Virus record (IMG/VR): IMGVR_UViG_3300037258_000330
Coordinates: 1-44,037 of that record
Strand: one strand, 5' to 3'
Source: a virus
Length of the DNA stretch: 44,037 nucleotides
A program made the position numbers and the translations under genes. Shown here piece by piece: positions 1-26,899 of the stretch (positions are counted from its first letter, which is position 1; each line of letters begins with the position of its first letter). Below the pieces are notes generated by a model. It was not told where the DNA came from. It did no database searches and saw only the letters and a program-made list of their open reading frames with translations.

Positions 1-127
1 GTTTGCCGCCCAGTTTGAGCGGACGCGCGCCGAGGAGTCTCAGCCGGGCTACACGCCCCCGCCGCCGCCCTGGTGGGAGACCCGTCGCCCCCCGACGCCG
101 GCGCCGACGCGCCGGATGAAGGTCGAG
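1..127. repeat. Terminal overlap copy 1 (identical to 43911-44037)
   Basis: Base-by-base reading of both ends gives a 127/127 match. Confidence 0.97.
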
Positions 128-745: not shown

Positions 746-1756
746 ATGCGCGCTGGCAGCGTACCCTGGTCGCAGTTCGTCCAGGAGGTCGTCGACATCT
801 ACAGCCTCGAGCGTCAACCGAAGACGGTGGCCAAGATGCGACAGGTGCTGACCGAGTTCGGATCACTCGTGAAATCGACGTCGCAGTTGAAACCCGCGAC
901 GATCGCCCGGTGGCGAAAACTGTATCCGCATCGCGCCCAATCAACGGTCCACTCCCTGATGCGGTCACTTCGATCGGCTTGCGAGATCGCGATAGCCAGC
1001 GGGTACATGCTATCGTCGCCCCTTGCCGTAAAGCAAGTGTGGCCCGAGCTCGACGACCCCGATCCCGATGCCGAGAAGCATCATGCGATCTCGGAGATCC
1101 GGGCCGTGCTGCTCAACCTGCGGAGCCAGTCGGGCTATTCCTGGCACGATGCGCGCCTCTATGCCCTGGCCGCGACGGTGGCCTATACGGGGGTCCGGAA
1201 GAACGAGGCGCTCCATCTCCAGATCCCCGATCTCGACTTCGATCGGCGCTGCATCCGAATCGTGTCCCGCCGGCCGCGGGCCGGCGGATCGACGAAGATG
1301 CCCAAGCTCAAAACCAAGGCCAGCGCGGCGCCCGTCGGGATGCCGGACGAGCTGGCGGCCGTGCTCGAGCTCTGGGTCGCCAAAGCCGTGGCGCCGCCGC
1401 TCGTGGCGCTTCGCCGCGCGTCGAGGCCTGCACAGCTCTGGCTCTTCCCCGGGTCGACGGGCGCGAATGCCTGGACCGGCGGTCCGCCCGGCTACAAGCC
1501 GCTCGACGTCCTCGTGGCGGCCGGCTCGGCCGTCGGCGTGGATGGTTTCACCTTCCAGTCGCTGCGTCACTCCTGGGCGACGCACGGCGAATACTGGGGC
1601 CTGGGCGAGACGATGATCCAGCGCCAGCTCCGGCACACCACGCGCAAGACGCAGCAGGTCTATCGCCACGCCGACCTGGCGAACCTGGCCACGTCGGTCC
1701 GGGCGATCTCGTTCGTCGGCCCGTCCGAGCGCGGGCCCAAGGTCGCCCAGGTCTAA
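746..1756 (+). CDS. int: Tyrosine recombinase / phage integrase
   Basis: 336 aa. Contains TGVRKNEAL (box I Arg), LRHSWATH (H-x-x-R region) and LRHTTRKTQQVYRH (His and catalytic Tyr). GGAGG is 8 nt upstream of the ATG. The gene is adjacent to the tRNA-fragment attP. Confidence 0.95.
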   Translation: MRAGSVPWSQFVQEVVDIYSLERQPKTVAKMRQVLTEFGSLVKSTSQLKPATIARWRKLYPHRAQSTVHSLMRSLRSACEIAIASGYMLSSPLAVKQVWPELDDPDPDAEKHHAISEIRAVLLNLRSQSGYSWHDARLYALAATVAYTGVRKNEALHLQIPDLDFDRRCIRIVSRRPRAGGSTKMPKLKTKASAAPVGMPDELAAVLELWVAKAVAPPLVALRRASRPAQLWLFPGSTGANAWTGGPPGYKPLDVLVAAGSAVGVDGFTFQSLRHSWATHGEYWGLGETMIQRQLRHTTRKTQQVYRHADLANLATSVRAISFVGPSERGPKVAQV

Positions 1757-3324: not shown

Positions 3325-3552
3325 ATGGCCAAGCCAAAGAAGCCCAAGGCCGACCCGCTCAAGCAACGCACGGCCCAGGTCGCCCTCGGCATCCGGCCGC
3401 TCTGGATCCTGACCGAGGGGGCGATGCCGGTGCTCGTCAGCTCGAGCGCCCGGCACAAGGTCGACATGACGAAGGTGACTCACTTCCAGCGCGAGGGCGA
3501 CCCGCACTGGCGGCCGATCGCGGAACTGCTTGCGAAAGGCGACGACGAATGA
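3325..3552 (+). CDS. Hypothetical early protein (75 aa, basic N-terminus)
   Basis: The ATG is 1 nt after the previous stop. The 3' end forms an ATGA overlap with the methylase gene. Confidence 0.6.
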   Translation: MAKPKKPKADPLKQRTAQVALGIRPLWILTEGAMPVLVSSSARHKVDMTKVTHFQREGDPHWRPIAELLAKGDDE

Positions 3553-4424
3553 GACCGGCGCTGCGCTATTACGGGGGCAAGTGGAAGATCGCGCCCTGGG
3601 TGATCAGCCATCTGCCGCCCCATCGGGTGTATGTCGAGCCGTTCGGCGGCGCGGCGTCCATCCTCTTGCGCAAGCCCCGCTCCTATGCCGAGGTGCTCAA
3701 CGATCTCGACGGTGAGGTTATCAACGTGTTCGCCGTCCTGCGCGATCCCGCCTCGGCGCTACGCCTGAAGGAGATCGTAGCGCTCACTCCGTTCGCACGG
3801 GACGAGTTCAAGCTTGCTCATGAATGGTCCGAGGAACCGGTCGAGCGTGCGCGGAGGGCGGTGATTCGTGCCTTCATGGGCTTTGGGTCGAATTCGTTTC
3901 ACGGGAAGGGGGGCATGCGGACGCGCTCATCTCCATGGACGGTATGCCGTACGGGTTTTCGCGCGAATGCCAAGCGCCAGGGTACGACGCCGGCGAGCGA
4001 CTGGGCGAGCTGGCCGGACTCGATTCCCGGGTTCATCGAGAGACTCCGTGGCGTGGTGATCGAGAACCGCGATGCGCTCGAGATCATGCGCCAGCACGAC
4101 GGCGCGGAGACGCTCTATTACCTCGACCCGCCCTACCTGATGACGACCAGGTCGTCGCGCGATCAGTACACGTTCGAGCTCGACGAGGACGGACACCGCG
4201 AGCTGGCCGAGGTTGCTCGATCGATGGTCGGATCGGTCGTGATCTCGGGTTACCACTCCGAGCTTTATGAGGACCTCTACCGCGGCTGGGTCCGCGTCGA
4301 GCGGCCCGCCCTGGCCGACGGCGCGCGGCCGCGTACCGAGGTCCTCTGGCTCTCGCCACGGGCGCACCGATCGTTACGGGACTCGAGGAATTCACTGTTC
4401 GATTTACTGGGACCACTCGTATGA
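3549..4424 (+). CDS. dam: DNA N6-adenine methyltransferase, Dam/D12 class
   Basis: YYGGKWK, EPFGGAASI (AdoMet motif) and YLDPPY (catalytic DPPY) are all present. Confidence 0.92.
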   Translation: MRPALRYYGGKWKIAPWVISHLPPHRVYVEPFGGAASILLRKPRSYAEVLNDLDGEVINVFAVLRDPASALRLKEIVALTPFARDEFKLAHEWSEEPVERARRAVIRAFMGFGSNSFHGKGGMRTRSSPWTVCRTGFRANAKRQGTTPASDWASWPDSIPGFIERLRGVVIENRDALEIMRQHDGAETLYYLDPPYLMTTRSSRDQYTFELDEDGHRELAEVARSMVGSVVISGYHSELYEDLYRGWVRVERPALADGARPRTEVLWLSPRAHRSLRDSRNSLFDLLGPLV

Positions 4425-7111
4425 AACCCCGCATCCAAGAAGACTCTCCCGACCCCCTGCGGGTCACACCGAAACGCCTGGCCGACGAGCTCGGCCAGAT
4501 CGGCGACCAGCTCGGCCGGCTGGCCAACCGCGTCCGGCCGTTCGCGTTGCTCCTGGACGCGGCCGTGCGCGATGACGTCAACGCGCTGTACGACTCGATC
4601 ACGGTCGGCTCGCGGCGGGCCGTGGACCTGGCGGCGTCGATCCGGTTCGGCGGCGCGGCGATCGTCCAGGCGCTCGTCGACACCGCGGCCGGCCGCGGCG
4701 AGCGGCCGCTCCTCGACCGGATCGAGAGTGCTCCGGCTCCGGCCGGGCCGGCCGCGGGTTATGAGTCGGTGCTTACGGCGCTGCCGGGGGCCAACGGGGC
4801 GGCCGAGCCGGAGCCGGCGAAGCGAAGCGCCAAGGCACCGGCGAAATTCGCGTGGGAGGTGTGGGCCTTCAACTCGGCGGGGATGCCGGTCTCGCTCTGC
4901 CCGATCACAGTGCCGACTCGCGATCCGGAGCGGGCGCTCGAATATGCGCGGCAGGCGGTGACCGAGGGTGAGGACAAGCTCATCGACATCGATAGGTCTC
5001 TCGTTCCCGTCGATCCGGCCAAGCTCAAAGTGCTTCGCATGGGATCGCCAGAGGCGGTGAAATTCGCGTCCGAGTCGGAGCGGGCGCCGGCGTGGACCGG
5101 GGGTGAGGTCGTCGCCGCCGGCGAGTACACGCTCGAGGAGCTCGGCCTGGGCGGCCAGCTCGACCGGATCGAGGCTGCATACAGCGGCGACACGATCGCG
5201 AGCAATGGAAAGCTCCGGGGCGTGATCGCCGTCAAGGATCGTCTCTATGCCAATGTCGGCGGCCTCATGAAGGGGGGCACGATATTGCGGGTCGATCTGG
5301 TCAAGCTGGTGCCGCTTGAGAGCTGGACCGGGGCGAGCTGCACGTATGCGGAACGGGCCATGACGCGCCCGCATAAAGATTTCTACAATTCCGTCCGGGT
5401 CGAGCACAAGGGCCAGTCGTACGTGATGCTCGGCAAACTCGGCCGGTTGAACATCGTTATCCCGCCGGCCGCTGAGACGGTTCCCCAGCCGGCCGAGCCG
5501 GCGCCGGTCGAATCGGAGCCGGAGCCGGCCGAGGCGCCCGAGAAGACCGTCAAGATCCCGACCGACGCCGAGGAACGCAAGGCGCGGCGGCGCGAGAACG
5601 ACGCGAAGTACCAGGCCAAGAAGCGCGAGAAGCGGCTGCTCGACAAGGCGATCGGCAACCGGGTCGAGTCGGCCGGCCCGGTCGATCGCCGCGAGAAACT
5701 CCGGGAGCCGGTGCTCGGGCCGACCGTGCCGGCGAAGTCGCTGGCGACGCCGGCCCACTGGGCGTCCGTGCCGATCGCCGAGCTGCAATTGACCGACGCC
5801 AGCAAGCGGGCCCTGGCCGACGGCATGAAATTCAAGACGGCCGGCGACGTCGCCGACTGGCTCGCGACCAACCCCAAAGCGCCCTGGCCGACGCCGTCGG
5901 CGACGCCGTGGCCGGAGGTCGTCGAGATCGCCAAGGTCGCGATCGAGCTCGTCAAGAAACTGCATGAGCAGCCGGCCGAGCCGCCGGCCGACGTCGAATG
6001 CTGCTCGGTGCTCTCGCCGTGTCCCGAGGGTTACCAGCGGGTCTACAGCGTGCACGCGCGGGAAACCTACACACGGGCGGAGATCCGGGCCGGCGCGAAG
6101 CCGCAGCGCCTGGGCGAAGTCATCGCGGCCAACATCGATGAGGCGAAGCTTGCGGCGGCGCGCCGGTTCGGCGTCCGGCCGGTCGAGGTCGGCGAGTGCA
6201 TGGTCGATGGTGGCAAGGGGCAGAAGATCGTTCGTGTGCCTCGGTTTGATGTGCTCGATCTGAAGGCGGTCGACAAGAAAGGCCAGTACAAGGTCCTGGG
6301 CACGATCGATGCGCCGAACAGCGCCCGCGCCCGGATCATCGCCGAGAAACGGTGGTCCGACCTGCCGCCCGACCGGCTCAACATCCGGAACGTCGAGCTC
6401 CGGCCGGCCGAGTCCAAGCCGCGCAAGCCGAAACCGAAGCCGGCCCCCGAGCCCGACCCGCTTGAGAACCTGTTTATCTATTGGGGCCAGGGCAAGGGCG
6501 GGAAGCAGGTGAACCCGGTCTACGGGATCAAGGCGCCGTCGCTCACGGCGGCGGTCGCCTGGGTCGATGCGCATCACCCCAAGGATCACGGCGGCCAGGT
6601 CCGGCCCGACCTCGACGGTACGATCGTGCGCCGCAAGGTGCCGGTCGTCGTCGATCTCGTGCTCAATCCGGCGGCCCATCCGGACCCCCCGCCGGCCGAG
6701 CTGGCCACGCCGACGGCCGCAGGCCAGATCGACCTATGCACCCTGCATGGCCAGCCGCCGCTGCCGGCCGGGCACGAGCGCGTCTTCAGCGTGTACGACA
6801 GCCGGACAAATCCGCCGACTGTGCTCGGCGAGATCGCCGGCGCGAACATCACCCGGGCCATGATGGCGGCCGAGGCGCAGTGGCCCGACGTGCCGAAGCG
6901 GATGCTCGCCTACAAGCCCAAGCTCGCGCCCGGGACCAAGCATCAGGCGACCCGGCCGGCCAATCGGCTCGTCGACCCCGACGTCGAGCTGGCGGAGTTC
7001 CGGCGCTCGTTCGACGTCGGCGCCGACCGCGCGCAGTGGCTGCTCGAGCAAAGGAGCAACGGCGAGCCGGACCTCGAGCCGGAGCCGGCCGAAAGCGAGG
7101 CGTCCGGATGA
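4421..7111 (+). CDS. Large orphan early protein (896 aa) with five repeated beta-beta-alpha-like modules, Pro/Glu/Ala linkers and a helix-hairpin-helix-like segment
   Basis: ATGA coupling to dam. The composition is protein-like, unlike the Arg-rich antisense ORF 4277..6679. ELQLTDASKRALADGMKFKTAGDVADW resembles an RNA polymerase alpha-CTD-type HhH. Confidence 0.85.
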   Translation: MKPRIQEDSPDPLRVTPKRLADELGQIGDQLGRLANRVRPFALLLDAAVRDDVNALYDSITVGSRRAVDLAASIRFGGAAIVQALVDTAAGRGERPLLDRIESAPAPAGPAAGYESVLTALPGANGAAEPEPAKRSAKAPAKFAWEVWAFNSAGMPVSLCPITVPTRDPERALEYARQAVTEGEDKLIDIDRSLVPVDPAKLKVLRMGSPEAVKFASESERAPAWTGGEVVAAGEYTLEELGLGGQLDRIEAAYSGDTIASNGKLRGVIAVKDRLYANVGGLMKGGTILRVDLVKLVPLESWTGASCTYAERAMTRPHKDFYNSVRVEHKGQSYVMLGKLGRLNIVIPPAAETVPQPAEPAPVESEPEPAEAPEKTVKIPTDAEERKARRRENDAKYQAKKREKRLLDKAIGNRVESAGPVDRREKLREPVLGPTVPAKSLATPAHWASVPIAELQLTDASKRALADGMKFKTAGDVADWLATNPKAPWPTPSATPWPEVVEIAKVAIELVKKLHEQPAEPPADVECCSVLSPCPEGYQRVYSVHARETYTRAEIRAGAKPQRLGEVIAANIDEAKLAAARRFGVRPVEVGECMVDGGKGQKIVRVPRFDVLDLKAVDKKGQYKVLGTIDAPNSARARIIAEKRWSDLPPDRLNIRNVELRPAESKPRKPKPKPAPEPDPLENLFIYWGQGKGGKQVNPVYGIKAPSLTAAVAWVDAHHPKDHGGQVRPDLDGTIVRRKVPVVVDLVLNPAAHPDPPPAELATPTAAGQIDLCTLHGQPPLPAGHERVFSVYDSRTNPPTVLGEIAGANITRAMMAAEAQWPDVPKRMLAYKPKLAPGTKHQATRPANRLVDPDVELAEFRRSFDVGADRAQWLLEQRSNGEPDLEPEPAESEASG

Positions 7112-7415: not shown

Positions 7416-7562
7416 ATGGCGATCTATGAGATGGTGCGAGCGCTGCGGGAGATCGCGGCCTTCGATGGGTTTTTCGACGGCGAGCGGACGCAACGCAATC
7501 TCGCGCTCAAGACGCTCGTCCGGGTAAGCAAGTGGATTCCATTGCCCGAAACGGGTCTGTGA
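7416..7562 (+). CDS. Hypothetical small protein (48 aa; alternative GTG start at 7377)
   Basis: Frame of track ORF 7191..7562. GC3 favours this frame over 7339..7527. The start is uncertain. Confidence 0.4.
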   Translation: MAIYEMVRALREIAAFDGFFDGERTQRNLALKTLVRVSKWIPLPETGL

Positions 7563-7568
7563 AAAAAA

Positions 7569-7624
7569 CCCGGCCGTAGCGGCGTCCTTGCTGCAATCGC
7601 GCGACAAGGCGCGATCCGGCCGGG
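7569..7624. terminator. Long GC-rich hairpin directly after the early operon, preceded by A7 (a T7 tail on the minus strand)
   Basis: CCCGGCCG (7569-7576) pairs with CGGCCGGG (7617-7624). Inner stem is GCG-CCTTG/CAAGG-CGC. A-tract is at 7562-7568. There is no U-tract on the plus side. Confidence 0.45.
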
Positions 7625-7831
7625 CCATTCGAACGGTCCCGATTCTAACGCCGGCCGGGCACGGCCGGGAACCGCAATCACCGATGTTCACGAAGAAATA
7701 TCGACTCATTGATCTGATCAGTCTCGCGGCGGTCGTCTCCGTCGCGCTGGCGGTTCAGGTCCGCGGCTACCTGCGATCGCTCGGGGACCTTCCCCCGGGC
7801 GGTCCCGTTCCTCCGACGATGAGGCTTTACG

Positions 7832-8938
7832 ATGAAGGCTACATGCTCGCGGCGTGGCTTTACCCTGATCGAGATTCTGATGGTGATCGTGATCATCGGC
7901 GTGCTCGTCGGCCTGCTCGTGCCGGCGATCGCGGGCGCGATGCGGGCCGCGAATAACGCGGCCGTGCAGTCGGAGCTGAACGCGCTGGCGTCGGCCCTGA
8001 CGGCGTTCCGGAGCCAGTTCGGCGACTATCCCCCGTCGCGGATCTTGCTCTGCGAGGACGGGAATTATGCACCGTTCTTCACGTCGGGCACGTACACGCT
8101 CGGCCAGACGGCGAGCCCGTCGGCGATCGACCAGTCGGACGGGGCGCTCGCGGCCCGGTCGATCTCGGCGCTCCGGAAGATGTTCCCGCGCTGCGCCCAG
8201 TCGGCCGCCGGCCCGCTCTACAACCTGGCGAGCGGCTGGCCCGACTACAACGGCAACGGCCAGATCGACCCGCCGCGGCTGATCTCGGGCGACGAGTGCC
8301 TGGTGTTTTTCCTCGGCGGCCAGCCGACGAAACTGGCCGGCCCGCCCGGCTCGTCGACGCCGGCCTGGGCGACGACCGGGTGGGGCGCCGACCCGCGGGC
8401 GCCCTTCCTGGTGGCCGCGAAGAACCGGATCCAGCCGCTCTATGATTTCGCGGCCAACCGGCTCGTCGACGCCGACGGCGATGGGTACCCGTCGTACGTC
8501 GACAGCCTCGGCACCAGCCGGCCGATCGTGTACTTCAGCGGGTACAGCGGGGCCGGCTACGACCCCAATGACGTGAACTTCGACGTCGGGTCAACATACG
8601 TCGAGACCGACGAGAACGGCACCACGTCGCCGATCGCCTTGCGGTTCACCGTGGCGTTTCCCGTGCTGGGCGGCGCACCGGCGGCGATCTCGCCGGCGCC
8701 GAACCCGTACACGTATTCGACGTCGGTCGCGAGCCCGGCGAACTGGATCAAGCCGCAATCGTTCCAGGTCTTCTCGGCCGGCGGCGACGGCCAGTACGGG
8801 GTCGGCGGCCTCTATAGCGACTCGGCCGACGAGCCGTTGCCGGTCGACACGGCGAACACGACGCCGTCGTCGGATGCGGGGATCAGGATACGTGAGCGTG
8901 ACAACCTGACCAATTTCCGGAACGGCCGGCTGGACTGA
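7832..8938 (+). CDS. Prepilin-type (GspG/type IV pilin-like) protein with a large C-terminal extension
   Basis: MKATCSRRG/FTLIEILMVIVIIGVLVGLLVPA shows a class III signal peptide with Gly-1, Phe+1 and Glu+5. The following helix, NNAAVQSELNALASALTAFRSQFGDYPPS, resembles T2SS GspG. GAGG is 7 nt upstream. Confidence 0.85.
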   Translation: MKATCSRRGFTLIEILMVIVIIGVLVGLLVPAIAGAMRAANNAAVQSELNALASALTAFRSQFGDYPPSRILLCEDGNYAPFFTSGTYTLGQTASPSAIDQSDGALAARSISALRKMFPRCAQSAAGPLYNLASGWPDYNGNGQIDPPRLISGDECLVFFLGGQPTKLAGPPGSSTPAWATTGWGADPRAPFLVAAKNRIQPLYDFAANRLVDADGDGYPSYVDSLGTSRPIVYFSGYSGAGYDPNDVNFDVGSTYVETDENGTTSPIALRFTVAFPVLGGAPAAISPAPNPYTYSTSVASPANWIKPQSFQVFSAGGDGQYGVGGLYSDSADEPLPVDTANTTPSSDAGIRIRERDNLTNFRNGRLD

Positions 8939-8976
8939 CCTGAACCGATTGAACCTCGGCGCGGAGGGAGGAAGCG

Positions 8977-9537
8977 ATGACGTTGGGCTCGTTGTTATGT
9001 GGATTGTCTTTAGTCGTGGCGTTACTCAGCATGGTCGTCTCGTGGCAGGCATGGCGGGATCGGCCCTTCGAGCTCCGGCGGCTCCGGGCCGCGAACCGCG
9101 AGATCGACCGAGCGGCGGAAGCCGAGCGGCTGGCCCGGCGGTCGGCGGTCCCGGAGCCGGCCCGGCCGGCGGCCGAGGGGGAGCCGCCGCGCGAGGCGAC
9201 GGGCCGTGCGCAGGTCCGGCAGTTGTTTCGCGACGCGGCCGCGCGACACGGGCTGCGGTTCCAGGAGAGCACACGCGGGCCGATCTGGACCGGGAGCCTG
9301 GACGATCCGTCGGGGCGGGCTGTGCGGGGCCGAGTGCTGGGGAGCAAGACGCTCCTGGCACTGTTCCCGGATCCGGTCGCCCTGGGGAGCGAGCTCGAGT
9401 GCTGGACCTACGATGTGCCGCGACACCTTGACGCGGCAGTTGACTGGGCGCGCACGGGAGCGTGGCCGACGATCGGCTGGACGCCGGATAAGCGAGTGGA
9501 CCGACCCGCGGGCGATACGAACCCTGATGCCGGCTGA
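8977..9537 (+). CDS. Membrane-anchored hypothetical protein (186 aa)
   Basis: Strong RBS (GGAGGGAGGAAGCG before the ATG). N-terminal TM helix: LLCGLSLVVALLSMVVSW. Confidence 0.7.
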   Translation: MTLGSLLCGLSLVVALLSMVVSWQAWRDRPFELRRLRAANREIDRAAEAERLARRSAVPEPARPAAEGEPPREATGRAQVRQLFRDAAARHGLRFQESTRGPIWTGSLDDPSGRAVRGRVLGSKTLLALFPDPVALGSELECWTYDVPRHLDAAVDWARTGAWPTIGWTPDKRVDRPAGDTNPDAG

Positions 9538-9590
9538 AACACAAACGTCCCGGCCGGCGCGGGCCGGTCGGGACGGGGAGGAATGATTCG

Positions 9591-9953
9591 ATGGGAGAGA
9601 GAGAAGGTCAGACTGGACGGATTGCCGAACTGCTCGGCCAGATCCTCGAGCTCAAGGCCGAGCTCGCCGGCACGCGTTGCCAGGCCGACAGGATCGACGC
9701 CGAGCTCGAACGGGTGCGCGTCGAGCGGGATCGGCTATTCGCGCGGCTCGTGACTCATGACCAGTACTACATCAGGCGCGACGGGGATAACCTGGGCGAG
9801 CAGCACTCGGCCTGGCGCGTCCTGTGTTGGATGCTCTACTGGCAATTGCCCGCGCCCGACGGGGTCGTTGCCGCGGCACTGACCGAGCACGATCGAACGG
9901 CCGCCGTCACTCCCACCCCAACCACCGCCGCAACGCCCGGTCGACCTGGTTGA
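9591..9953 (+). CDS. Coiled-coil protein, paralog of 39784..40059
   Basis: RBS is GGGGAGGAA. It shares ILE(L/I)KAEL..(R)VR.ERD.L and W(M)..P.P(D)(G)VVA.AL..HD(G)R with the other copy. Confidence 0.7.
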   Translation: MGEREGQTGRIAELLGQILELKAELAGTRCQADRIDAELERVRVERDRLFARLVTHDQYYIRRDGDNLGEQHSAWRVLCWMLYWQLPAPDGVVAAALTEHDRTAAVTPTPTTAATPGRPG

Positions 9954-10278
9954 GTTTCGCTCGCCGGCGGGCGCACCCGCACTCGCGGCCGAGCCGGCCG
10001 GCGACCCACTTCGCAAGCCGGTCGGCGCCGAGCCGGGCGGCCGCGGCGGCGACCAGGTCGCCGGCGAGCGGGATCGGCGAGCCGGCCGGTGATGGGGCCG
10101 AGCACGGCGGCCGGCCGGCGGGGGGAGCCGGCCGCGGCCGGGGCGGGCCGCCGGCCATCTCGATCACGATCGGGATGTAGCGGGCGTCATAGATCGGGCT
10201 CGCCGGGTCGCAGAGCGCGCGGAAGCGCGTGTGGTTGGTCTCGGCGACGACGATGTCGAGGGCCTGCGCGAGGTCCAT
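9907..10278 (-). CDS. Last gene of the late operon; hypothetical (123 aa) with C-terminal GRECGCARRRAKLN motif
   Basis: ATG is 2 nt after the stop of 10281.. gene. Internal Met of track ORF 9907..10443. It overlaps the convergent gene 9591..9953 by 47 nt. Confidence 0.55.
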   Translation of the reverse strand: MDLAQALDIVVAETNHTRFRALCDPASPIYDARYIPIVIEMAGGPPRPRPAPPAGRPPCSAPSPAGSPIPLAGDLVAAAAARLGADRLAKWVAGRLGRECGCARRRAKLNQVDRALRRWLGWE

Positions 10279-10280
10279 TG

Positions 10281-11348
10281 TCACTCGGTCCAGGTGATCG
10301 TGCCGTACCCGCCGCCGAAGCTCACCGAGCCGGAGACCGGGCAGATCGAGGCCGAGTTGGTGACGGCCCCCGGTGCACTGCCGCAACCGGGATTGCCGAC
10401 AAAGCCCGCGCTTGCGTACGTCTTCGAAAAGGCGCGCGTACATGGGTCGACGGGATCGACGGTCGAATAACCCACCGTCAGCGTGCCGCCGCTACAGCCA
10501 ATCGCCGGGTCGGCCGGCAAGACGATGCTCCACTCGCCGGCGCTCGTGTACGGAACCGTTACGGTGGTGCCTCGATCGAGCCCGTAGATCCCCACGTTGG
10601 GGATGGTCACGTTCAATGTCACCGGCACGAGGTATTCCCAGCACGCGTCGATCGGCCAGCAAAAATTCTGCGTGTAGGCCGGTCCGCCGGCATCGTAGCC
10701 GACCTGCGCGAGATCGACGGGCCCCCAGCTCTGGCTCGTGCAATCGCCGGTCGCGCCCGCGTACGGAATGACCCCGGATAGGAGACTGCACGGCATCAAG
10801 GGGAAGCTCGTCACTCCCACGGTACCGGTGAGCGTCTGATGTCCGGGCGCTGACCAGGCGACGGTGATCGCGCCGCCGCTTGATCCCGGCATATAGTAAT
10901 AATAGACCTCACTGATCCCGCTCGTGAACGTCAACGAGAAGCCAACCGCGCCGCCGACCGTCACGGTTACCGGGCAGGCGGTCGAGGGCTGGCAACACAC
11001 GCCAAGACAGGTGTAGGCCCCGTGGATCGCGATCGGCCCCCAGGTGCCGAGGGTCGAGAGCGTGACGGTGATATTGGCGCCGCCGGAGCCGACACTCACC
11101 GACTGCGAGCCGCCCGGGTACGAGACGGTGTAAGTGCCGGTCGATGGGAGGGTCACGCAACAGTTCGCGTTGCCGTCGCCGTCGTTGGTGGTGGTGCAGG
11201 TCCCGACGACCGTCGAGCCGCTGTCGGTGACCGTGACGGGGATCGGCGGGATCACGTACGTGTGCGAGAGCCCGGTGCAGAGGTTCTCGAACTTGACGCA
11301 GAGCGACGTCGGCGCCGACGTGCAGCAGCTCTTGCAGACCAGGGGCAC
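10281..11348 (-). CDS. Cysteine-rich, Gly/Thr/Ser/Val-rich distal tail protein (candidate receptor-binding protein)
   Basis: The GTG at 11348 lies 1 nt after the upstream TGA (TGACGTG). The track start 11462 would overlap the upstream gene by 113 nt. About 25 Cys are present, including CKSCC, NCC and GVCC. Beta-rich composition. It sits distal to the tape measure. Confidence 0.7.
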   Translation of the reverse strand: MPLVCKSCCTSAPTSLCVKFENLCTGLSHTYVIPPIPVTVTDSGSTVVGTCTTTNDGDGNANCCVTLPSTGTYTVSYPGGSQSVSVGSGGANITVTLSTLGTWGPIAIHGAYTCLGVCCQPSTACPVTVTVGGAVGFSLTFTSGISEVYYYYMPGSSGGAITVAWSAPGHQTLTGTVGVTSFPLMPCSLLSGVIPYAGATGDCTSQSWGPVDLAQVGYDAGGPAYTQNFCWPIDACWEYLVPVTLNVTIPNVGIYGLDRGTTVTVPYTSAGEWSIVLPADPAIGCSGGTLTVGYSTVDPVDPCTRAFSKTYASAGFVGNPGCGSAPGAVTNSASICPVSGSVSFGGGYGTITWTE

Positions 11349-11349
11349 G

Positions 11350-11757
11350 TCAGCAATCCCCCACCAACAAATAAAGATACGGGCCGCGCCACTTGGCCCA
11401 GGCGAACTTGGTCGCGTCCAGGGCCGTGGTGTACGGGTTGTAGCAGGTCGCGGTGTCGGCACCCGAGGCGGTGAAACCCGGGCCGTCGGCGTCCTCGATC
11501 AGGAGCGTCACGGTCGCCGAGCCGGGCGAGCCGTACGTGCCGGCGGCGATCCCGCCCGAGCCGGTCAGGATCGGCACCAGCTCATCGGTCGCCAGGCTGT
11601 ACAGGAGCGGCGGCGAGACCGAGCTCTCGGCGCTGTCGATCGCCAGCGGCGGCGATGCGACCATGCGCCGCCACCGCTCGAGCTCGCGGTAGATGATGTT
11701 GAGCATCCAGGGCGCGAGCGAGTCGCCGTCTTTGACGTTCGGGAAAATGTTCGGCAT
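11350..11757 (-). CDS. Tail-tip associated hypothetical protein (135 aa)
   Basis: Tightly packed between the neighbouring tail genes, with good codon bias. Confidence 0.7.
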   Translation of the reverse strand: MPNIFPNVKDGDSLAPWMLNIIYRELERWRRMVASPPLAIDSAESSVSPPLLYSLATDELVPILTGSGGIAAGTYGSPGSATVTLLIEDADGPGFTASGADTATCYNPYTTALDATKFAWAKWRGPYLYLLVGDC

Positions 11758-12597: not shown

Positions 12598-14217
12598 TCA
12601 CGGCCCTCGCAGGATGGCGCCCGGCTTCTGATTCCGGATCGCGGTGAGGATGTCGCTGAGCACGGTCTTGGCTTCGCCGAGCTTGTCGTTGGCCTGGTCG
12701 AGCGCCTGGAGCTGCTTGGCCTTGGCGTCGTCCGGATCCGAAAGCGCCGACTGAATCGCCGACCGGGCGAAGTCGGCCGGGTCAGAGAAGGCCTGCGATT
12801 GGAACGGTCCCTTCTCGGCCTGCGCCCGCGCGGCGTCGGCGACGCGGTTGGCGAGCACCAGGCCGCCCTGGATCAGCCGGCCGGCGGCTCCGCCGACTCC
12901 GACGCCGGGGATCAGGTTGCGGCCGAACTGGTTCGCCGCGCCCTGGCCGGCGGCGCCGGGAGCGGTGGCGCCGGCGATCGATTGGATTTGACCGAGGAAG
13001 TTCCGGGCCACGCCGCGGAGCCCGAGCTCGACCCCGTTGCCCTCGGCCGTCGCGCCCGGCCGGCGATCGTGGTCTTTCTTCCAGTCCTCGCGGTCCTTGA
13101 TGCGCTTCGCCGCGGCGGCCACTCTGCGGTCATGATCGGCTTGCTGGGCCTGCCGCTGGGCCGCGAGGAAGCCGGGATCGCGCTTGCCCTGGGCGTTGGT
13201 CATCATGCCCGGGATGCCGGGGGCGTTCAGCGGCAGGCCTAAATCCTCGGCCGCCCGCTCGCCCATTGCACGCTGGAGATTTCCCGTACGGTCGCCGAGG
13301 CCGACCAGGTTCAGCAACTGATTCGCCTGGTCCATGAGCACAAACGCTGGCCCTCGCTTCAGCGCCACGCGCGAGCCGTTGATCCGGTCCCTGATCTCAT
13401 CTCCGACGAGCTTCCCCGGTTCCTTGCCCGTGGCCTCCTTGATCACACCGGCCAGCTCGTGCGCCAGCTTGATCCCGTCCCGCAGCGCCTCCTGTAGGTT
13501 GTCACCGAATGCGACGGCCGCGTTCTCGAGCTCGCCCTGCAACTTCCGGAGCTGGTTCGCATTCGAGTCGGCCGTCCGGCTCAAGTCGCCGATGGCACCC
13601 TGGGTCGCGGCCTGTTTCCGGATGAGCGAAATTCGTGCGACCACTTTTTCTTGTTCGGTGAGCTCGCGCTTCACCCTCGTCAGACCCATCGCCAAGGCCT
13701 CGGCCTTGACCGCGTCCTCTGAGAGTAGGAACCCGAGCGGTTTCAGCGGCTCCGACTCGCCGGCCATGCCGGAGCGGAGCTTATCGAACGCATCACCGTT
13801 CGCGAGGTTGTGGTAGCTGGCGATGTCGAGCCCGAGCTGGACCATCTCCTGGCCGAGCTTCGCCGAGGCGGCCGTCGACAGCCCCGCGGCCCGGCCCATC
13901 AGACCGAAGCCGGCCGCGGCGTCGAGTGCCTCTTGCTTCACGACGCCGAACCGGTCGGCCAGGTCGTCGGCCTGGTCGATCATCCCCTGCGCATCGCGCC
14001 CGAATGTGACACGCACTTTCGAGAGCGACTCGCCCAGGTCGGCCGATTTCTTCGCCGCGGCGAGCAAGCCGCCGGCGACGCCCCCGGCGCCGCCGATGCC
14101 GACAGTGATCGCGCGCGAGGCGAACGACGTCAACATCGACCGGGCCCGGCCGAGGCCGGCCTGCATGGGTTTCAGGTTGGCGCCTACATCAACGTAGGCT
14201 TCGGCGAGCTTGCCCAC
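12598..14217 (-). CDS. Tail tape measure protein
   Basis: 539 aa and Ala/Gly/Leu/Gln-rich helical. The N-terminal core (LGESLSKVRVTFG...QEALDAAAGFGLMGRAAGLS...MAGESEPLKPLGFLLSEDAVKAEALAMGL) is typical of tape measure proteins. It follows the G/GT chaperones. GTG start. Confidence 0.9.
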   Translation of the reverse strand: MGKLAEAYVDVGANLKPMQAGLGRARSMLTSFASRAITVGIGGAGGVAGGLLAAAKKSADLGESLSKVRVTFGRDAQGMIDQADDLADRFGVVKQEALDAAAGFGLMGRAAGLSTAASAKLGQEMVQLGLDIASYHNLANGDAFDKLRSGMAGESEPLKPLGFLLSEDAVKAEALAMGLTRVKRELTEQEKVVARISLIRKQAATQGAIGDLSRTADSNANQLRKLQGELENAAVAFGDNLQEALRDGIKLAHELAGVIKEATGKEPGKLVGDEIRDRINGSRVALKRGPAFVLMDQANQLLNLVGLGDRTGNLQRAMGERAAEDLGLPLNAPGIPGMMTNAQGKRDPGFLAAQRQAQQADHDRRVAAAAKRIKDREDWKKDHDRRPGATAEGNGVELGLRGVARNFLGQIQSIAGATAPGAAGQGAANQFGRNLIPGVGVGGAAGRLIQGGLVLANRVADAARAQAEKGPFQSQAFSDPADFARSAIQSALSDPDDAKAKQLQALDQANDKLGEAKTVLSDILTAIRNQKPGAILRGP

Positions 14218-14906
14218 TTAGTCTCTCCACTTGAGCTTGCCGGCCGCGAAATCGGCGAGCACGCGCTTGGCCTGCCAGCGCTCTTTTGACAGGCCGTCGG
14301 GATTGCCGCGGGTGATGATGGCGACCACTTGCGGATAGGTGAGGTCGCCGATCCGGTCGGGTGGGATCCCGTACTGATCGAGCAGTCTGAAGACCAAGGG
14401 CGCCCAGTCGTCGGCGCCGTCGTCCTCTACGCGGCCTCTTCGGCCGCCGCGACTTTTGGGGCCGGCCGCGGTGGCTGGCCATAGAACGAGACGCGCAAGA
14501 GCTCGTTCCAATCGTCGGTCGAGAACAGCTTCGCGAGCGCGGTCGCGCGCTCGATCGTGAAGGTCTTGTCGGCCTTGGAGAGGACCTGGTGCAGGAGGTA
14601 GGCCTGGCCGCCGTCGGCCCGGTCGATGGACTCGAACCAGTCGGTCGAGCCGAGCCGCGGCGGCCACGACAGCGCCGCGCGCTGGGCGTGGTCGAGCAGG
14701 ATCTCGCGGGTCTCGATCGAGAGCGGCTCGCCGTCGGCCGCGGCCTGGTCGATCGCCCGGCCGGCCCGTGTGACCGGCGACGGCGACCGGCGTTTGAGCC
14801 ACGCGCTGATCTCGCCCCACTCGCGCAGGGTGAGCAGCCGCACGGAGTACTCGGCGCCGGCGAGATCGATTTCCTCGGCGGCGCCGACAACAACGGAGAG
14901 ATCCAA
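14218..14906 (-). CDS. Tail assembly chaperone fusion (gpGT-like) made by a -1 programmed frameshift at 14454-14460
   Basis: The -1 frame stays open from the slip site to 14218 and encodes ...DDGADDWAPLVFRLLDQYGIPPDRIGDLTYPQVVAIITRG.... Confidence 0.7.
14427..14906 (-). CDS. Tail assembly chaperone (gpG-like), TTG start
   Basis: GAGGAG is 6-7 nt upstream of the TTG. The gene lies between the tail tube and the tape measure. A slippery heptamer sits near its 3' end. Confidence 0.8.
   Translation of the reverse strand: MDLSVVVGAAEEIDLAGAEYSVRLLTLREWGEISAWLKRRSPSPVTRAGRAIDQAAADGEPLSIETREILLDHAQRAALSWPPRLGSTDWFESIDRADGGQAYLLHQVLSKADKTFTIERATALAKLFSTDDWNELLRVSFYGQPPRPAPKVAAAEEAA
14454..14460 (-). 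promoter_or_regulatory. -1 ribosomal slippery heptamer C CCA AAA (XXXYYYZ)
   Basis: The minus strand reads gcC CCA AAA gtc in the G frame, 10 codons before the G stop. Plus strand is TTTTGGG. Confidence 0.7.
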
Positions 14907-14920
14907 GGGTAGCTCCTCAG

Positions 14921-15349
14921 TTATGCCAGGATCACGGGCCAGGTGAGGGCGCCGGAGATCTTGGCCGTGACGGGGATCTTATGCACATCCTCGAGCGATT
15001 CGATGCCGGGCGCGATGGTGCTGACCATTGCCGAGAGCGAATAAAACTTGGTCGCGTTGGTGTAGCATTGGACGACCAACAACGTCCCCGGGCGGATGTT
15101 GGCCAGGTCCGTGTCGGTCGGCGGGTTGTTGTCGTCGTAGACCAACGTGCATTCGAAGTCGACGTCGGTCAGAGTCAGGGCCGGCGTTCGGCCGGAGAGG
15201 AAGTTGGAGACGTCGACGAGCTTGCCGTCGATGTTCAATTTCCAATTCATGGCCGGCTGGACGACGGCCGTCAGGGTGTCCGCGATCAGGTAGGAAAACT
15301 TGAGCACGGCCACGGGGCCCGCGATCGGGGCGATGGGGGTAAGGGTCAT
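14921..15349 (-). CDS. Major tail (tube) protein candidate
   Basis: 142 aa, immediately upstream of the G/GT chaperones, with RBS GAAAGAAGG. The function is positional. Confidence 0.65.
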   Translation of the reverse strand: MTLTPIAPIAGPVAVLKFSYLIADTLTAVVQPAMNWKLNIDGKLVDVSNFLSGRTPALTLTDVDFECTLVYDDNNPPTDTDLANIRPGTLLVVQCYTNATKFYSLSAMVSTIAPGIESLEDVHKIPVTAKISGALTWPVILA

Positions 15350-15362
15350 GAGACCTTCTTTC

Positions 15363-15890
15363 TCAGGTGCTATCGCCGGAGAGGTTGATTCCGAAGGTGA
15401 TGGGGTTTGAACCGGGGTTCGCGATTTTCAACTGATCGCTCGAGCCGGATCCGACCGGGATGCCGGCCGCGTTGGTGGCGACGATCAAGAGGCAATCAAA
15501 TACTGGGATCGCTTGCGTCGATCCGATCGTGACCGGGTGTGTCGCGGCCTGGCCGAAGTTGAGGTAGTCACCGTCGACCCGGTCGATGAGCCAGACAAAC
15601 GCCTTGCGCAATCGCGCGAGGGCGAGCGATCGGGTGAGGCTGTCGGTGAGCGCTGACAGCGTGTAAGTGACGGATGACCCGCCTGCGAGTGTCACGGCGG
15701 TGTCGCCGCTTAGCTCCCAATGCACGTCAACGACACTCGCGACCGTGCCACTGGTCGAGGTTCCGTTTGACATCGGATACGTGGCCTTGCTCGTCCCCTG
15801 GGCGGGAAGACTGATGGGGCCGACGTCGATGTTCTCGGTGATTTGATCGCTGACTGTGACCGTGTTGAGGCAGTTGATCGAGACCGACAT
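15363..15890 (-). CDS. Virion structural protein (175 aa, beta-rich)
   Basis: The internal ATG at 15890 is 4 nt after the upstream stop. The longer track ORF start would overlap the upstream gene. Confidence 0.65.
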   Translation of the reverse strand: MSVSINCLNTVTVSDQITENIDVGPISLPAQGTSKATYPMSNGTSTSGTVASVVDVHWELSGDTAVTLAGGSSVTYTLSALTDSLTRSLALARLRKAFVWLIDRVDGDYLNFGQAATHPVTIGSTQAIPVFDCLLIVATNAAGIPVGSGSSDQLKIANPGSNPITFGINLSGDST

Positions 15891-18722: not shown

Positions 18723-19466
18723 TCATGCCGGGGGGTTGAGGGTGACGGCCGTGCGGTTGCCGTTGGCGTCGACGGTGGCGCTGATCCGGGTCGCCGAATT
18801 GGCTGGATTTTTGATGGTGATCGTGCTCGCGCCGCCGGTCGCGCCGGAGAGCACTGAGGCGACCGCGTCGAGGATCAGGGCCAGGGCCTGGCGGGCGTTG
18901 ATGCCGGTCTCGGCGACGACCTGGTCGAGGCCGGCGGAGTCGAGCTCGTAAGCGGTCTTGTCGTTGTTGGTGCCGACCGTCACGGGATCCGTGACGCTGG
19001 CGACGGAGCCGGCGACGTTGCCGCCGACATTTCCCGTCACGGATCCCACTGCCCCTGTGACGGAGCCCACCGAACCGGTAACCGAGCCGACGGCACCCGT
19101 CACGGACGCGACCGCGCCGCCGGCATAGGTTGACCGGCTCGAGACCGTCGCATCAATGTTCGTGATCCCGAAGTTGCTCGCCGTCGTCGGGTCGCACGCC
19201 GTGAAGACGAGCGTTTTCTCGACCGCGATCATGCCCGTCATCGTGAACAGGTACGAGCCCTCGTTGGCGTTCGTATCGGCCTGCGAAAGCGCGAACCAGT
19301 ACTGGCCGTTGCCCTTGTCCGCCACGCTCCCGGTGGCGCTCGCCTGGGCGCCGCCGTCGAGGACGCGATAGGCCGCAAAGCCCGTGGTCCCGGTCATCGT
19401 CTCGCCGGACGAGATCGCGATCGCCGCGAACCCGACGCCCTGGCTGGCGGTGTTTTTGCGATACAT
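18723..19466 (-). CDS. Fibre-like protein with (V/A)GSVTG hexapeptide repeats
   Basis: The internal ATG 19466 overlaps the giant gene's stop (TGATG). It contains GAVASVTGAVGSVTGSVGSVTGAVGSVTGNVGGNVAGSVASVT. Confidence 0.75.
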   Translation of the reverse strand: MYRKNTASQGVGFAAIAISSGETMTGTTGFAAYRVLDGGAQASATGSVADKGNGQYWFALSQADTNANEGSYLFTMTGMIAVEKTLVFTACDPTTASNFGITNIDATVSSRSTYAGGAVASVTGAVGSVTGSVGSVTGAVGSVTGNVGGNVAGSVASVTDPVTVGTNNDKTAYELDSAGLDQVVAETGINARQALALILDAVASVLSGATGGASTITIKNPANSATRISATVDANGNRTAVTLNPPA

Positions 19467-25344: not shown

Positions 25345-26760
25345 TCAGGAGTGCGTGGCCGAAGTGCCGACGAAGCCGGAGACCTGGTTGCTTTGCGTCC
25401 CGTCCGCGAGGTAGTAAGGCGCGATCTGGCCGGGCTTGCCGTCGTTGCGGATCTTCGCGCGAATCGCGATCTGGTCGGTGTCGAACAGGAAGTGCTCGGA
25501 CAGGCCGATCTCCAAACCCGACCGGCGGCCGACCCAGTACTTCTTACGGTCGATTAGCATCAGGTCGCAGGCGTCGCCCAGGACCGGCGCTTTTTCCGAC
25601 GCGTAGAGCTGCCAGCCGAGGAACACTCCGGACGGCCGGTAGGCCAGGCCGCCGGCGGCGACGGCGCCGACGCCGGGCGTGGCGACGATCGTCGAATAGG
25701 GGATGAAGATGAACCGCCCCGAGGGATCCTGCATCGTCTCGAGCTGGTACAGCGTGTAGGGGTGACAGACCCAGCACGGCGACATCGGGTTCTGTGCGAA
25801 CCGCGTCTTCATCGTGAAGACGTCCTGGTACAGGATCTCGTCGTTGGTGTTTCGGTCCACCAGGAGCATCGCCGGCGAGTTGGTCACACCCAAGAATTGC
25901 CCCGCGCCATTGCCCTGAAACGACTCCCAATCCTCGCGCCAGCCGATGGCGCCGCCAATCATCCGGATCGCGTACGCGTCCATGCCCGACGCATCGTAGA
26001 TCAGGTCGCGGGACAGCTCGGTCAGGGCCGTCAGGTCCTGCGCCAGCATCTGGATTTTCTTGAGCGCGAAATCGGTCTCGGTGCGCTGGACCTTTTCGCC
26101 CTTCCGGTAGACCTGCACGCCGCCGTACCAGGCGCTCTGCCCCAGGACCGGAGCCGTGAACTGGTTCAACGCCGTGTACTCGACCTGGCGCGCGGCGAGC
26201 GGCTTGACGTCGGCCGCCGGCACGATGATCTCTTCCTCGGCCGCGACCTCGAAGAACATCGACTCATAAACGACCGGCGTGGCGTAGCCACCGGTCGAGC
26301 CGGCGCCTTCCGCCATGTTCCGGCTCGAGCCGTACCCGCCCTCTTCCCAGGGCCGGCAAAGCTCCTCGTGGGCATTGCGGCACTCGTCGGCATCGCGCGA
26401 GCCGAGGGCCTCGATCACGGTCCGCACGAAATGCCCGGGGCCGGCCCGGCGGCGGTCGATCTCCTGCGACCCGGAATCGATCCGGCCGTTGAACTCGATC
26501 CCGCCGTTCGAGGCGACGAGCTGGCGGGGACGAGCGAGCGGGCCCTGGCTCGCGCCGAGCTGGCTCCGGGTCCGGTCGGCCTGGGCCTGGATCAGGGGTT
26601 GCAACTGCGCCACGGCCATTGCGGCCGCGCGCTGCGCGGGATCTTCGGGGGCCGCCTCGGCGACGCCGAGGGCGACGTAATTCTGGGCGATGGCGTCCGC
26701 GACGTCGGCGAACGAGCCACTCTTGGCCGTGCCGATATCACGGATGAACTTGATCCACAT
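25345..26760 (-). CDS. Major capsid protein, HK97 fold, with N-terminal delta/scaffold-like region
   Basis: STGGYATPVVYE followed by a typical HK97-family body. The ATG at 26760 is preferred over the GTG at 26835 because the first 25 codons have poor codon bias. Confidence 0.85.
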   Translation of the reverse strand: MWIKFIRDIGTAKSGSFADVADAIAQNYVALGVAEAAPEDPAQRAAAMAVAQLQPLIQAQADRTRSQLGASQGPLARPRQLVASNGGIEFNGRIDSGSQEIDRRRAGPGHFVRTVIEALGSRDADECRNAHEELCRPWEEGGYGSSRNMAEGAGSTGGYATPVVYESMFFEVAAEEEIIVPAADVKPLAARQVEYTALNQFTAPVLGQSAWYGGVQVYRKGEKVQRTETDFALKKIQMLAQDLTALTELSRDLIYDASGMDAYAIRMIGGAIGWREDWESFQGNGAGQFLGVTNSPAMLLVDRNTNDEILYQDVFTMKTRFAQNPMSPCWVCHPYTLYQLETMQDPSGRFIFIPYSTIVATPGVGAVAAGGLAYRPSGVFLGWQLYASEKAPVLGDACDLMLIDRKKYWVGRRSGLEIGLSEHFLFDTDQIAIRAKIRNDGKPGQIAPYYLADGTQSNQVSGFVGTSATHS

Positions 26761-26899
26761 GGGTAGAAACCTTGGGGGTTCGTAGTTGTCGAACAGGCCC
26801 AGGGCGTAGACTTGCGGACGGACGGGGGGCGTCACGTTCGGCGGCGGTGGTCGTCGTCGTGCTCGCCTGGTGCGTCGCTATCTCTCGTCAGGGTCGGAC

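Follow-up and report, generated by a model that had tools for sequence, protein, structure and literature searches.

What is a pilin gene doing in the genome of a phage? The question is raised by a stretch of 44,037 nt from the IMG/VR record IMGVR_UViG_3300037258_000330 (the window hereafter; GC content 68%), which carries on its plus strand, at 7832..8938, an open reading frame (ORF) for a 368-aa prepilin. The two contig ends form an exact 127-bp direct repeat (1..127 equals 43911..44037). From this overlap the genome is complete and closes into a circle of about 43.9 kb, and it is that of a temperate tailed phage, not a fragment of a chromosome. We conclude that the gene is almost certainly a phage-borne homologue of a pilin that the host encodes in its own pilus operon. 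The further proposal, that it is a long-maintained phage allele of the major-position pilin of an Isosphaeraceae-type host and would act by entering the host pilus, has in our judgement about an even chance of being right as a complete chain of events. The features of the locus are as follows.

7562..7660, no strand assigned: GC-rich stem-loop between the last ORF of the early block (stop at 7562) and the pilin cassette
7684..7956, plus strand: small membrane ORF of 90 aa (MFTKKYRLIDLISLAAVVSVALAVQVRGYLRSLGDLPPGGPVPPTMRLYDEG...), predicted single-pass, conserved core at 7699..7839
7832..8938, plus strand: prepilin gene, 368 aa, with leader M1-G9 at 7832..7858 and mature start at F10 (7859)
7859..8020, plus strand: hydrophobic N-terminal segment and alpha-1 helix of the pilin (residues 10-63), the polymerisation module common to type IV pilins and pseudopilins
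8021..8935, plus strand: globular domain of the pilin, about 305 aa, specific to a planctomycete pilin family according to the family alignments
8977..9537, plus strand: ORFan of 186 aa with an N-terminal hydrophobic segment (GC at third codon positions, GC3, 0.83)
9591..9953, plus strand: ORFan of 120 aa with a coiled-coil-like N-terminal half (GC3 0.76, a weaker coding signal)
9907..10443, minus strand: last gene of the tail/structural operon, converging on the pilin block (GC3 0.87)

A reading made from the letters alone (the sequence-only reading) had described a 368-aa ORF with a class III signal, and this ORF is present and strongly coding, with a GC content of 0.60/0.54/0.92 by codon position and a GAGG motif 7 nt upstream of its ATG. 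The N-terminus consists of MKATCSRRG followed by FTLIEIL (after the cleavage site, FTLIEILMVIVIIGVLVGLLVPA), with Gly at -1, Phe at +1 and Glu at +5, and two models of the prepilin signal scored above their cutoffs (PF07963 N_methyl, 27.8 bits against 21.2; TIGR02532, 28.8 bits against 16.3). The alignments show that the motif is kept throughout the pilin family. Judged by these features, the gene encodes a true type IV pilin-class prepilin. The JGI gene call begins the protein at Met17 (P0001, 352 aa) and loses the leader together with Phe+1 and Glu+5 (7832..7879); with a start of this type, automated annotation would miss both the prepilin signal and the small ORF that overlaps it. The JGI call of the next ORF is also shorter (168 versus 186 aa).

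The helix had been likened to that of GspG, the major pseudopilin of the type II secretion system (T2SS), and GspG (TIGR01710) was indeed the best NCBIfam match, at 54.3 bits against a cutoff of 88.85, with an alignment that spans only pilin residues 8-69 and profile positions 1-62 of 134. The second model, PF08334 (T2SSG), scored 15.3 bits against a cutoff of 21 over profile positions 3-37 of 108, and neither DUF1559 nor HX9DG gave a match at E <= 0.1 in Pfam or NCBIfam. Thus, of the hidden Markov model (HMM) searches that had been suggested, N_methyl passes, T2SSG stays below its cutoff and DUF1559 finds nothing. Membership of the GspG family was rejected because the scores fall below the curated cutoffs and the match is confined to the N-terminal helix, and GspG is kept as a positional analogue; membership of DUF1559/HX9DG was rejected as well.

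Beyond the helix, the sequence-only reading had seen an extension of about 300 aa with no motif that it could name. This part does lack any sequence family match in Pfam, PHROG or PDB, but it is no peculiarity of the phage, being the conserved globular domain of a host pilin family. An AlphaFold2 (AF2) model of the pilin built on 120 sequences had an overall predicted local distance difference test (pLDDT) score of 94.3 and a predicted template modelling score of 0.90, with a 52-residue N-terminal helix at residues 12-63 (pLDDT 93-98) followed by a confident mixed alpha/beta domain. The structure prediction that had been proposed for the C-terminal domain therefore yielded a confident model, but Foldseek returned no significant match for the globular domain in PDB or BFVD, including none to a pilin head, and the sole non-random local matches were to the helices of PulG, GspG and EpsG. 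The family profile matched solved pilins (Geobacter PilA-N, Thermus PilA, PulG and other major pilins among the PDB sequences, E 1e-13 to 1e-10) over the N-terminal ~90 positions only.

The alignments show a family conserved from end to end, with the globular-domain motifs DFNGNG, ECLVFFLGG, YFSAYGGxGYDPNDVNF, SPAPNPYT, QSFQIISAGxDGxYGVGG and a C-terminal RExDNLTNFxxGRLD, and with variable blocks at residues ~69-148, 249-308 and 329-348. The host pilins of the family are themselves hypervariable, and their median pairwise identity of 45% is about the divergence that separates phage pilins from those of hosts (best 48-52%). Read from the alignments, this pattern of variability is the signature of an exposed subunit, as expected under phage pressure.

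Whose pilin is it? A search of 5.8 billion proteins gave more than 456 matches with E values down to 1e-124, and the best 120 of these are full length (350-460 aa) and 40-58% identical; full-length homologues at such E values place the prepilin observation far beyond chance. The named homologues belong to Isosphaeraceae (Aquisphaera, Tautonia, Paludisphaera, Singulisphaera and Tundrisphaera). With one genome scanned per species, 346 relatives came to light, and the best 80 are almost all from Isosphaeraceae or unclassified Planctomycetota, and remoter copies at 32-35% identity occur in Planctomycetaceae (Schlesneria, Thalassoglobus and Planctomicrobium). These homologies make a host in the Planctomycetota very probable. 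The sequence-only reading had named the same phylum for a reason that does not hold, since it appealed to expanded pseudopilin-like families of the DUF1559 type, whereas the pilin family is present in about a single copy per genome.

Of 81 cellular loci, 75 have the homologue 79-965 bp downstream of a T2SSF/PilC gene on the same strand. Four of the other six loci are cut at a contig edge, L066 has the downstream genes of the operon with no T2SSF gene within 10 kb upstream, and the sixth, L009, is a phage contig. In the reference locus, L001, a PilB/GspE-like ATPase carrying an MshEN domain comes first, then a PilT/PilU-family ATPase, a second PilB-like ATPase, GspF/PilC and the pilin, followed by a 532-aa prepilin (best match GspH), an 86-aa prepilin and further prepilin-like proteins. 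The pilus operon thus has four to five prepilin genes after GspF/PilC, with the pilin family first and the GspH-like gene next. Its PilT/PilU ATPase scored 445 bits against a cutoff of 319, and no GspC, GspD, GspL or GspM was recognised among the ten operon proteins scanned. A PilT-family retraction ATPase in the operon argues for a retractile pilus rather than a classical T2SS, and gene order places the family in the GspG (major-subunit) position of an operon for a retractile type IV filament.

These results bear on a different account of the locus, in which the gene is a DUF1559-type pseudopilin-like protein, or a T2SS GspG pseudopilin, that heads a three-gene secretion module. The top NCBIfam rank of GspG would fit such a module, as would the name 'general secretion pathway protein G' that JGI gives to several family members, the weak matches to Verru_Chthon cassette proteins and a weak GspM-like match of the next ORF. 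The last of these (17.6 bits against a cutoff of 60, for the 186-aa ORF) had no corroboration. With no DUF1559/HX9DG match, GspG models that reach no cutoff and cover the N-terminal helix only, a retraction ATPase in the host operon and two downstream ORFs that are singletons, we consider this account very unlikely.

The Isosphaeraceae pilus operon is a conserved one, which spans 3255..18313 of L001 and recurs at the other cellular loci (within L005-L084). It combines two MshEN-domain PilB-like ATPases, possibly responsive to cyclic di-GMP, with PilT and PilC, and its downstream part holds the 40-kDa pilin with an unmatched fold, the 532-aa GspH-like prepilin, the 86-aa mini-prepilin and larger prepilin-like proteins. 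We found no published characterisation of this operon.

How long has the pilin been in phages? Seven phage-borne alleles were available (the window, L002/L003, L085, L086/L087, L088, L089 and L009), and all seven occupy one syntenic spot, the end of a plus-strand block that faces the distal tail genes. Every located relative at or above about 48% identity lies in a phage contig at this spot (P0003, which is L002/L003; P0006, L085; P0009, L089; P0014, L086/L087, 18 contigs; P0020, L088, 13 contigs), as does the copy on the L009 phage contig, and relatives at or below about 47% identity (P0026, P0037, P0039 and P0045) sit in the pilus operon. The phage alleles are monophyletic in a neighbour-joining tree of 80 sequences (bootstrap 94/100); this tree and the column alignment hold six phage alleles, L089 having been fetched later. 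The six are 45-58% identical among themselves, retain 72 of the 79 alignment columns with 90% or more conservation in hosts, with conservative substitutions at the exceptions, and carry no lineage-specific insertions (mature length 348-374 residues, against a host median of 381). Identity of the window pilin to the host-operon pilins is 43-52% over the full length.

L085, L086/L087 and L009 have almost no other detectable gene in common with the window in 15-21 kb of flanks, and still their pilins are 43-54% identical to that of the window over the full length, which makes the pilin the best-retained gene among these phages in the regions compared. Because it has been retained at full length without other shared genes, recent passive capture is ruled out, and its retention across unlike phages points to selection for a subunit that is able to assemble. 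No pilus ATPase or platform genes adjoin the phage copies, as expected for a hijacker. It is hard to reconcile these observations with a non-functional passenger, that is, a host gene fragment caught by imprecise excision. The locus does lie in a variable region beside the end of the tail operon, where foreign DNA often gathers, and its neighbouring ORFs are singletons; a single phage clade with appreciable internal divergence, synteny in otherwise dissimilar phages, nearly all of the family-invariant residues, an intact ORF with a GC3 of 0.92 and a co-conserved partner ORF nevertheless make a passenger extremely unlikely.

Outside this lineage, no relative of the pilin was found in 50,697 deposited phage genomes, and IMG/VR yielded one distant copy, at 9707..11077 of L004 (UViG 3300028531_000001, 76.8 kb), with 38% identity. 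The L004 element encodes DnaN, ParA, DHFR, GNAT, a P22 antirepressor domain and a PEP-CTERM protein. It has no counterpart of the small upstream ORF, and its pilin branches outside the phage clade and is probably an independent acquisition. The contig of L009 (JBJMIG010000025.1) is of phage type and comes from a metagenome-assembled genome labelled Labedaea sp. (Actinomycetota); it is probably mis-binned, because its pilin belongs to the planctomycete family. L001 and L085 both derive from assembly ERZ25039592, which holds a 6.6-Mb Isosphaeraceae-type chromosome with the operon and a phage contig with the cassette. Their pilins are 47% identical, and the two could be a natural host-phage pair.

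What accompanies the pilin in these phages? In translation, the ~150 nt before the pilin start are conserved in the window, L002/L003, L085, L086/L087 and L088, and an HMM from the five phages also found the small ORF in L009 (E 9e-7) and L089 (E 6e-25), so it is present with all seven phage pilin alleles. The same HMM found none in ~80 cellular loci (all E > 0.8). In the window the small ORF overlaps the pilin start by 125 nt in a different frame, and its product begins with basic residues, has a single hydrophobic helix and carries the motifs LPxGGxxP and YDEG. Substitutions per codon position (0.46/0.37/0.58) follow a coding pattern; among the five phages tested, GC3 exceeds GC1 and GC1 exceeds GC2 in L085, L086 and L088 and nearly so in L002, and the window ORF deviates from this (0.77/0.47/0.70). 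The L088 version was separately called as an 87-aa gene, and a search of 1.84 billion representative proteins added only three further small proteins of 87-101 aa. We conclude from this pattern of occurrence that the small ORF is a phage-specific partner of the pilin and that the conserved unit begins upstream of 7832, the point at which the sequence-only reading had begun its block.

That reading had the pilin head a block of three genes with the two ORFs after it, and proposed a search for the same block in related prophages. Both ORFs exist, but they do not form a unit with the pilin, as both are singletons and absent from all related phage loci, and the partner conserved there is the upstream ORF at 7684..7956. 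The ORF at 8977..9537 follows the pilin gene after a gap of 38 nt, has GGAGGGAGG before its ATG and is probably co-transcribed with the pilin gene, outside the conserved unit. It matched only itself in 5.8e9 proteins, has no homologue at the related loci and gave no Pfam, PHROG or PADLOC match. The ORF at 9591..9953 likewise matched only itself in the protein database, has no homologue at the related loci and gave no PHROG or PADLOC match. It overlaps the minus-strand gene 9907..10443 by 47 nt (9907..9953; GC3 0.76 versus 0.87), and its 3' end, or its reality, is doubtful. In place of these ORFs L085 has a GT2 glycosyltransferase (5825..6760) directly after the pilin, which is a second surface-modifying moron at the pilin locus, and L086-L089 have nothing after the pilin. 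L085 also encodes, at 14699..15726, a structural-region protein with an ADP-ribosylating exotoxin domain (PF03496).

The hairpin that had been noted upstream is a GC-rich stem-loop at ~7562..7660 with a folding energy of -48.8 kcal/mol on the minus strand and -48.2 kcal/mol on the plus strand (z about -2.06 against dinucleotide shuffles). A run of seven A precedes it on the plus strand, which on the minus strand is a hairpin followed by seven T, and it reads as an intrinsic terminator on the minus strand and not on the plus strand. Related phages do not conserve it, and it counts as a local feature only. At the convergent junction near 9900-10000 no terminator was detected, and it is speculative that late minus-strand transcription could run antisense over the pilin cassette and stop at the hairpin.

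How might such a gene serve a phage? In the chain of events that we propose, the phage prepilin would insert into the host inner membrane, where the host prepilin peptidase would cleave it after Gly9 and N-methylate Phe10. No recognisable pilus machinery is encoded by the phage, and the host PilB/PilC motor would polymerise the phage pilin by means of that protein's conserved alpha-1 helix and core, together with the host pilin or instead of it. The phage protein shares only 44-52% identity with any host pilin, with the differences concentrating in the variable blocks, so that the filament surface would be altered, and the most likely payoff would be a change in a putative receptor, such that pilus-binding phages, relatives included, would fail to adsorb to the lysogen or infected cell. 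Our best guess for the small membrane protein is that it acts in the inner membrane as a pilin-specific accessory, which would favour the phage pilin or restrain the host pilin. We infer processing, pilus incorporation, exclusion and the role of the small protein by analogy, and pilus remodelling, superinfection exclusion or lysogenic conversion, the roles that had been put forward from the sequence, would agree with published precedents (PMC12952977, PMC12426801). A stronger, rather improbable version has the two genes act as one cassette, in which the small bitopic protein at 7684..7956 would impose the phage pilin on the host machine and pili would be re-surfaced wholesale; the small protein might do so by sequestering the transmembrane helix of the host pilin, or by acting at PilC or PilD.

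All of the evidence for homology and assembly competence would fit equally well with lysogenic conversion for the benefit of the host, in which filaments of phage pilin change adhesion, biofilm or motility and any effect on phages is secondary or even sensitising. The phage is temperate, the glycosyltransferase after the L085 pilin is a typical surface-conversion moron, and the pilins of the haloarchaeal provirus SNJ2 promote biofilm and motility of their host and act as the receptor of another virus (PMC12426801). However, the host already has an orthologous pilin in a complete operon, and the mere gain of a pilus would therefore be no benefit; the globular domain, without insertions relative to hosts, suggests no new adhesin module; and competition with the host subunit accounts more easily for a partner found only in phages. 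We regard host benefit as a minority possibility.

The conserved residues also bear on whether the phage pilin, alone or with the small protein, could be a dominant-negative 'poison' subunit that stalls polymerisation or retraction, so that functional pili are lost and the cell becomes resistant to pilus-dependent phages. The end result would resemble that of Tip and Aqs1, reached by way of a structural mimic. Over-expressed pilin-like subunits can disrupt pilus assembly, and inhibition of assembly has been suggested as one option for truncated phage PilA (PMC12952977); phages commonly disable type IV pili (T4P) (PMC13436744), and the phage-only small transmembrane protein could be the actual inhibitor. 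Yet 72 of 79 host-conserved columns are kept over the whole globular domain, in addition to Phe+1 and Glu+5, and a blocker would need no full 300-aa domain, as illustrated by the truncated 60-residue PilA fragments of Pseudomonas phages. We rate a poison subunit somewhat lower again than host benefit.

The position of the gene raises one further alternative, that the protein is a component of the virion or of the infection cycle, either part of the particle or part of an export or entry device built by the phage. The gene adjoins the distal tail genes, and the phage pilin P-FimU of Pseudomonas is likewise encoded within a tail gene cluster. The pilin gene lies, however, near the end of the plus-strand block and converges on the last gene of the minus-strand tail operon, that is, outside the structural operon and on the opposite strand, as the sequence-only reading had placed it. 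The protein has no structural PHROG match, its class III signal directs it to the inner membrane and prepilin peptidase, and all of its homologues are subunits of pilus operons, which leaves a virion role most improbable.

Several points weigh against the chain of events that we propose. Status as the major fibre subunit, which we consider probable, is read from gene order and N-terminal similarity only, and the 86-aa prepilin of the same operon is an alternative candidate for the major pilin. The host machine could be a pseudopilus-type secretion system instead of a surface pilus. A promoter search upstream of the cassette found no sigma-70-like site, a result to be read with the caveat that planctomycete promoters may differ, and the pilin gene could simply be the tail end of an early lytic operon. 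In addition, the phage copies are without extra loops, unlike P-FimU.

The remainder of the genome is that of a tailed phage with an integrase, and PHROG and Pfam searches identified the following genes in the window.

746..1756, plus strand: integrase
3549..4424, plus strand: DNA methyltransferase
12598..14217, minus strand: tape-measure-like protein
25345..26835, minus strand: HK97-type capsid
26900..27826, minus strand: protease/scaffold
28244..29998, minus strand: MuF-like protein
30263..31753, minus strand: portal
32490..34034, minus strand: large terminase

The closest terminase of a deposited phage is at most 36% identical to that of the window. The last tail operon gene, 9907..10443, has homologues in the same place in L009 (37% identity), L086/L087 (49%) and L088 (44%). 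A 393-aa Cys/Thr/Gly-rich protein, encoded at 10281..11462 (minus strand) and distal in the tail operon, holds the place of a receptor-binding protein; in related phages that place is taken by a protein of 637-708 aa, and the one match found for the 393-aa protein was a weak one to L089 (33% over 134 aa). Within the tail module, variability seems to be greatest in this receptor-binding region beside the pilin gene. A giant ORF of 1761 aa (19466..24751, minus strand, GC3 0.92) separates the capsid region from the tail genes; PHROG matches it only locally, over a short stretch (residues ~1433-1514), and Pfam recognises no domain in it. Just past the terminase end of the structural operon, 35112..35825 (minus strand) encodes a matrixin-type zinc metalloprotease (Peptidase_M10, 46 bits against a cutoff of 24), which is unusual for a phage. 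ARAGORN called a tRNA-Arg(CCG) at 4682..4757 (minus strand), considered as a clue to attP; it lies inside a strongly coding 896-aa ORF (4421..7111), and the Rfam tRNA model stayed below threshold everywhere in the window. We conclude that the call is probably a false positive in GC-rich sequence and not an attP remnant.

To our knowledge, almost no phages of Planctomycetota have been characterised. If the proposed role is correct, a major-position pilin mimic has been maintained over a whole phage lineage, and the replacement of a receptor component, shown no earlier than 2025-2026, for Pseudomonas FimU and a haloarchaeal provirus, would extend to Planctomycetota. The likely fibre subunit of the type IV pilus of Isosphaeraceae would thereby also be indicated, a ~40-kDa protein and a good target for structural work. 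In the small membrane ORF there would be a testable candidate for a pilin accessory, or an anti-pilin factor, of a new kind, and if the two genes do enforce the exchange together, the locus would swap a receptor with the help of a dedicated enforcement factor and would give the first evidence of T4P as a phage battleground in Planctomycetota. There is also a lesson for annotation: the automated calls removed the signal peptide and overlooked the small gene that overlaps the pilin start.

Pilin genes are uncommon in phages, as the sequence-only reading said, but they have already been documented; a literature search on pilins of planctomycete phages found nothing. The cytoplasmic proteins Tip (phage D3112) and Aqs1 (DMS3) resemble the present case in being phage functions aimed at host T4P with superinfection exclusion as the payoff, and differ in that they are small PilB-binding proteins that abolish piliation, whereas the window gene is a homologue of a structural subunit (PMC13436744). 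The planctomycete DUF1559/HX9DG proteins share the phylum and the N-terminal prepilin motif, but they are massively expanded, with many copies per genome and another C-terminal domain, in contrast to a family that occurs about once per genome in a pilus operon. GspG/PulG (TIGR01710, PF08334; PDB 5wda, 3g20, 4lw9) have a class III signal and a similar alpha-1 helix, and the cellular homologues of the window pilin follow directly after the GspF/PilC gene and precede a GspH-like gene in the manner of GspG. The similarity stops at about residue 69, beyond which the window pilin has a globular domain of three times the size, with no relationship in sequence or by Foldseek, and the host operon differs by its PilT-family retraction ATPase.

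Closer in kind are pilins carried by viruses. The haloarchaeal provirus SNJ2 encodes the pilins PilA1 and PilA2; these take over the machinery of the host, and their filaments come to dominate the cell surface (Xiang et al., Cell Rep 2025, PMC12426801). As here, a temperate virus carries major pilins that rely on the assembly machinery of the host, and the trait is widespread in one virus lineage; unlike here, the virus is archaeal, its two pilins are in tandem and they have no sequence relationship to the window pilin. The demonstrated outcome for SNJ2 was filaments that help the host and a receptor for another virus, not exclusion.

The closest precedent is P-FimU of Pseudomonas aeruginosa F10-like prophages, which enters pili, preserves their function and blocks phages that bind the tip (Sztanko et al., Cell Rep 2026, PMC12952977); P-PilA genes of Xylella fastidiosa prophages and of four lytic phage groups are listed in the same study without testing (PMC12952977). 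P-FimU and P-PilA, like the window pilin, are phage-encoded full-length homologues of a structural subunit of the host T4P, are encoded next to or within tail genes, vary between related phages and are proposed to enter the host pilus and change the receptor, and their divergence from the host copy (28-50% identity) is comparable to that of the window pilin (44-52%). P-FimU is, however, a minor (tip) pilin with a role tested by experiment, whereas the window pilin is a candidate of a family in the major-subunit position. The two have no sequence relationship beyond the generic N-terminal helix, their hosts belong to different phyla, and the window pilin is of a ~40-kDa type with an unmatched globular fold and has none of the extra loops of P-FimU. 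A co-conserved small membrane ORF accompanies the pilin here, and none is described for P-FimU or P-PilA. By analogy with these precedents, we suggest that the window pilin belongs to the recently described class of virus-encoded pilus-subunit mimics, to which it adds a new phylum, a 40-kDa pilin family, lineage-wide conservation at a fixed locus and a co-conserved small ORF found only in phages.

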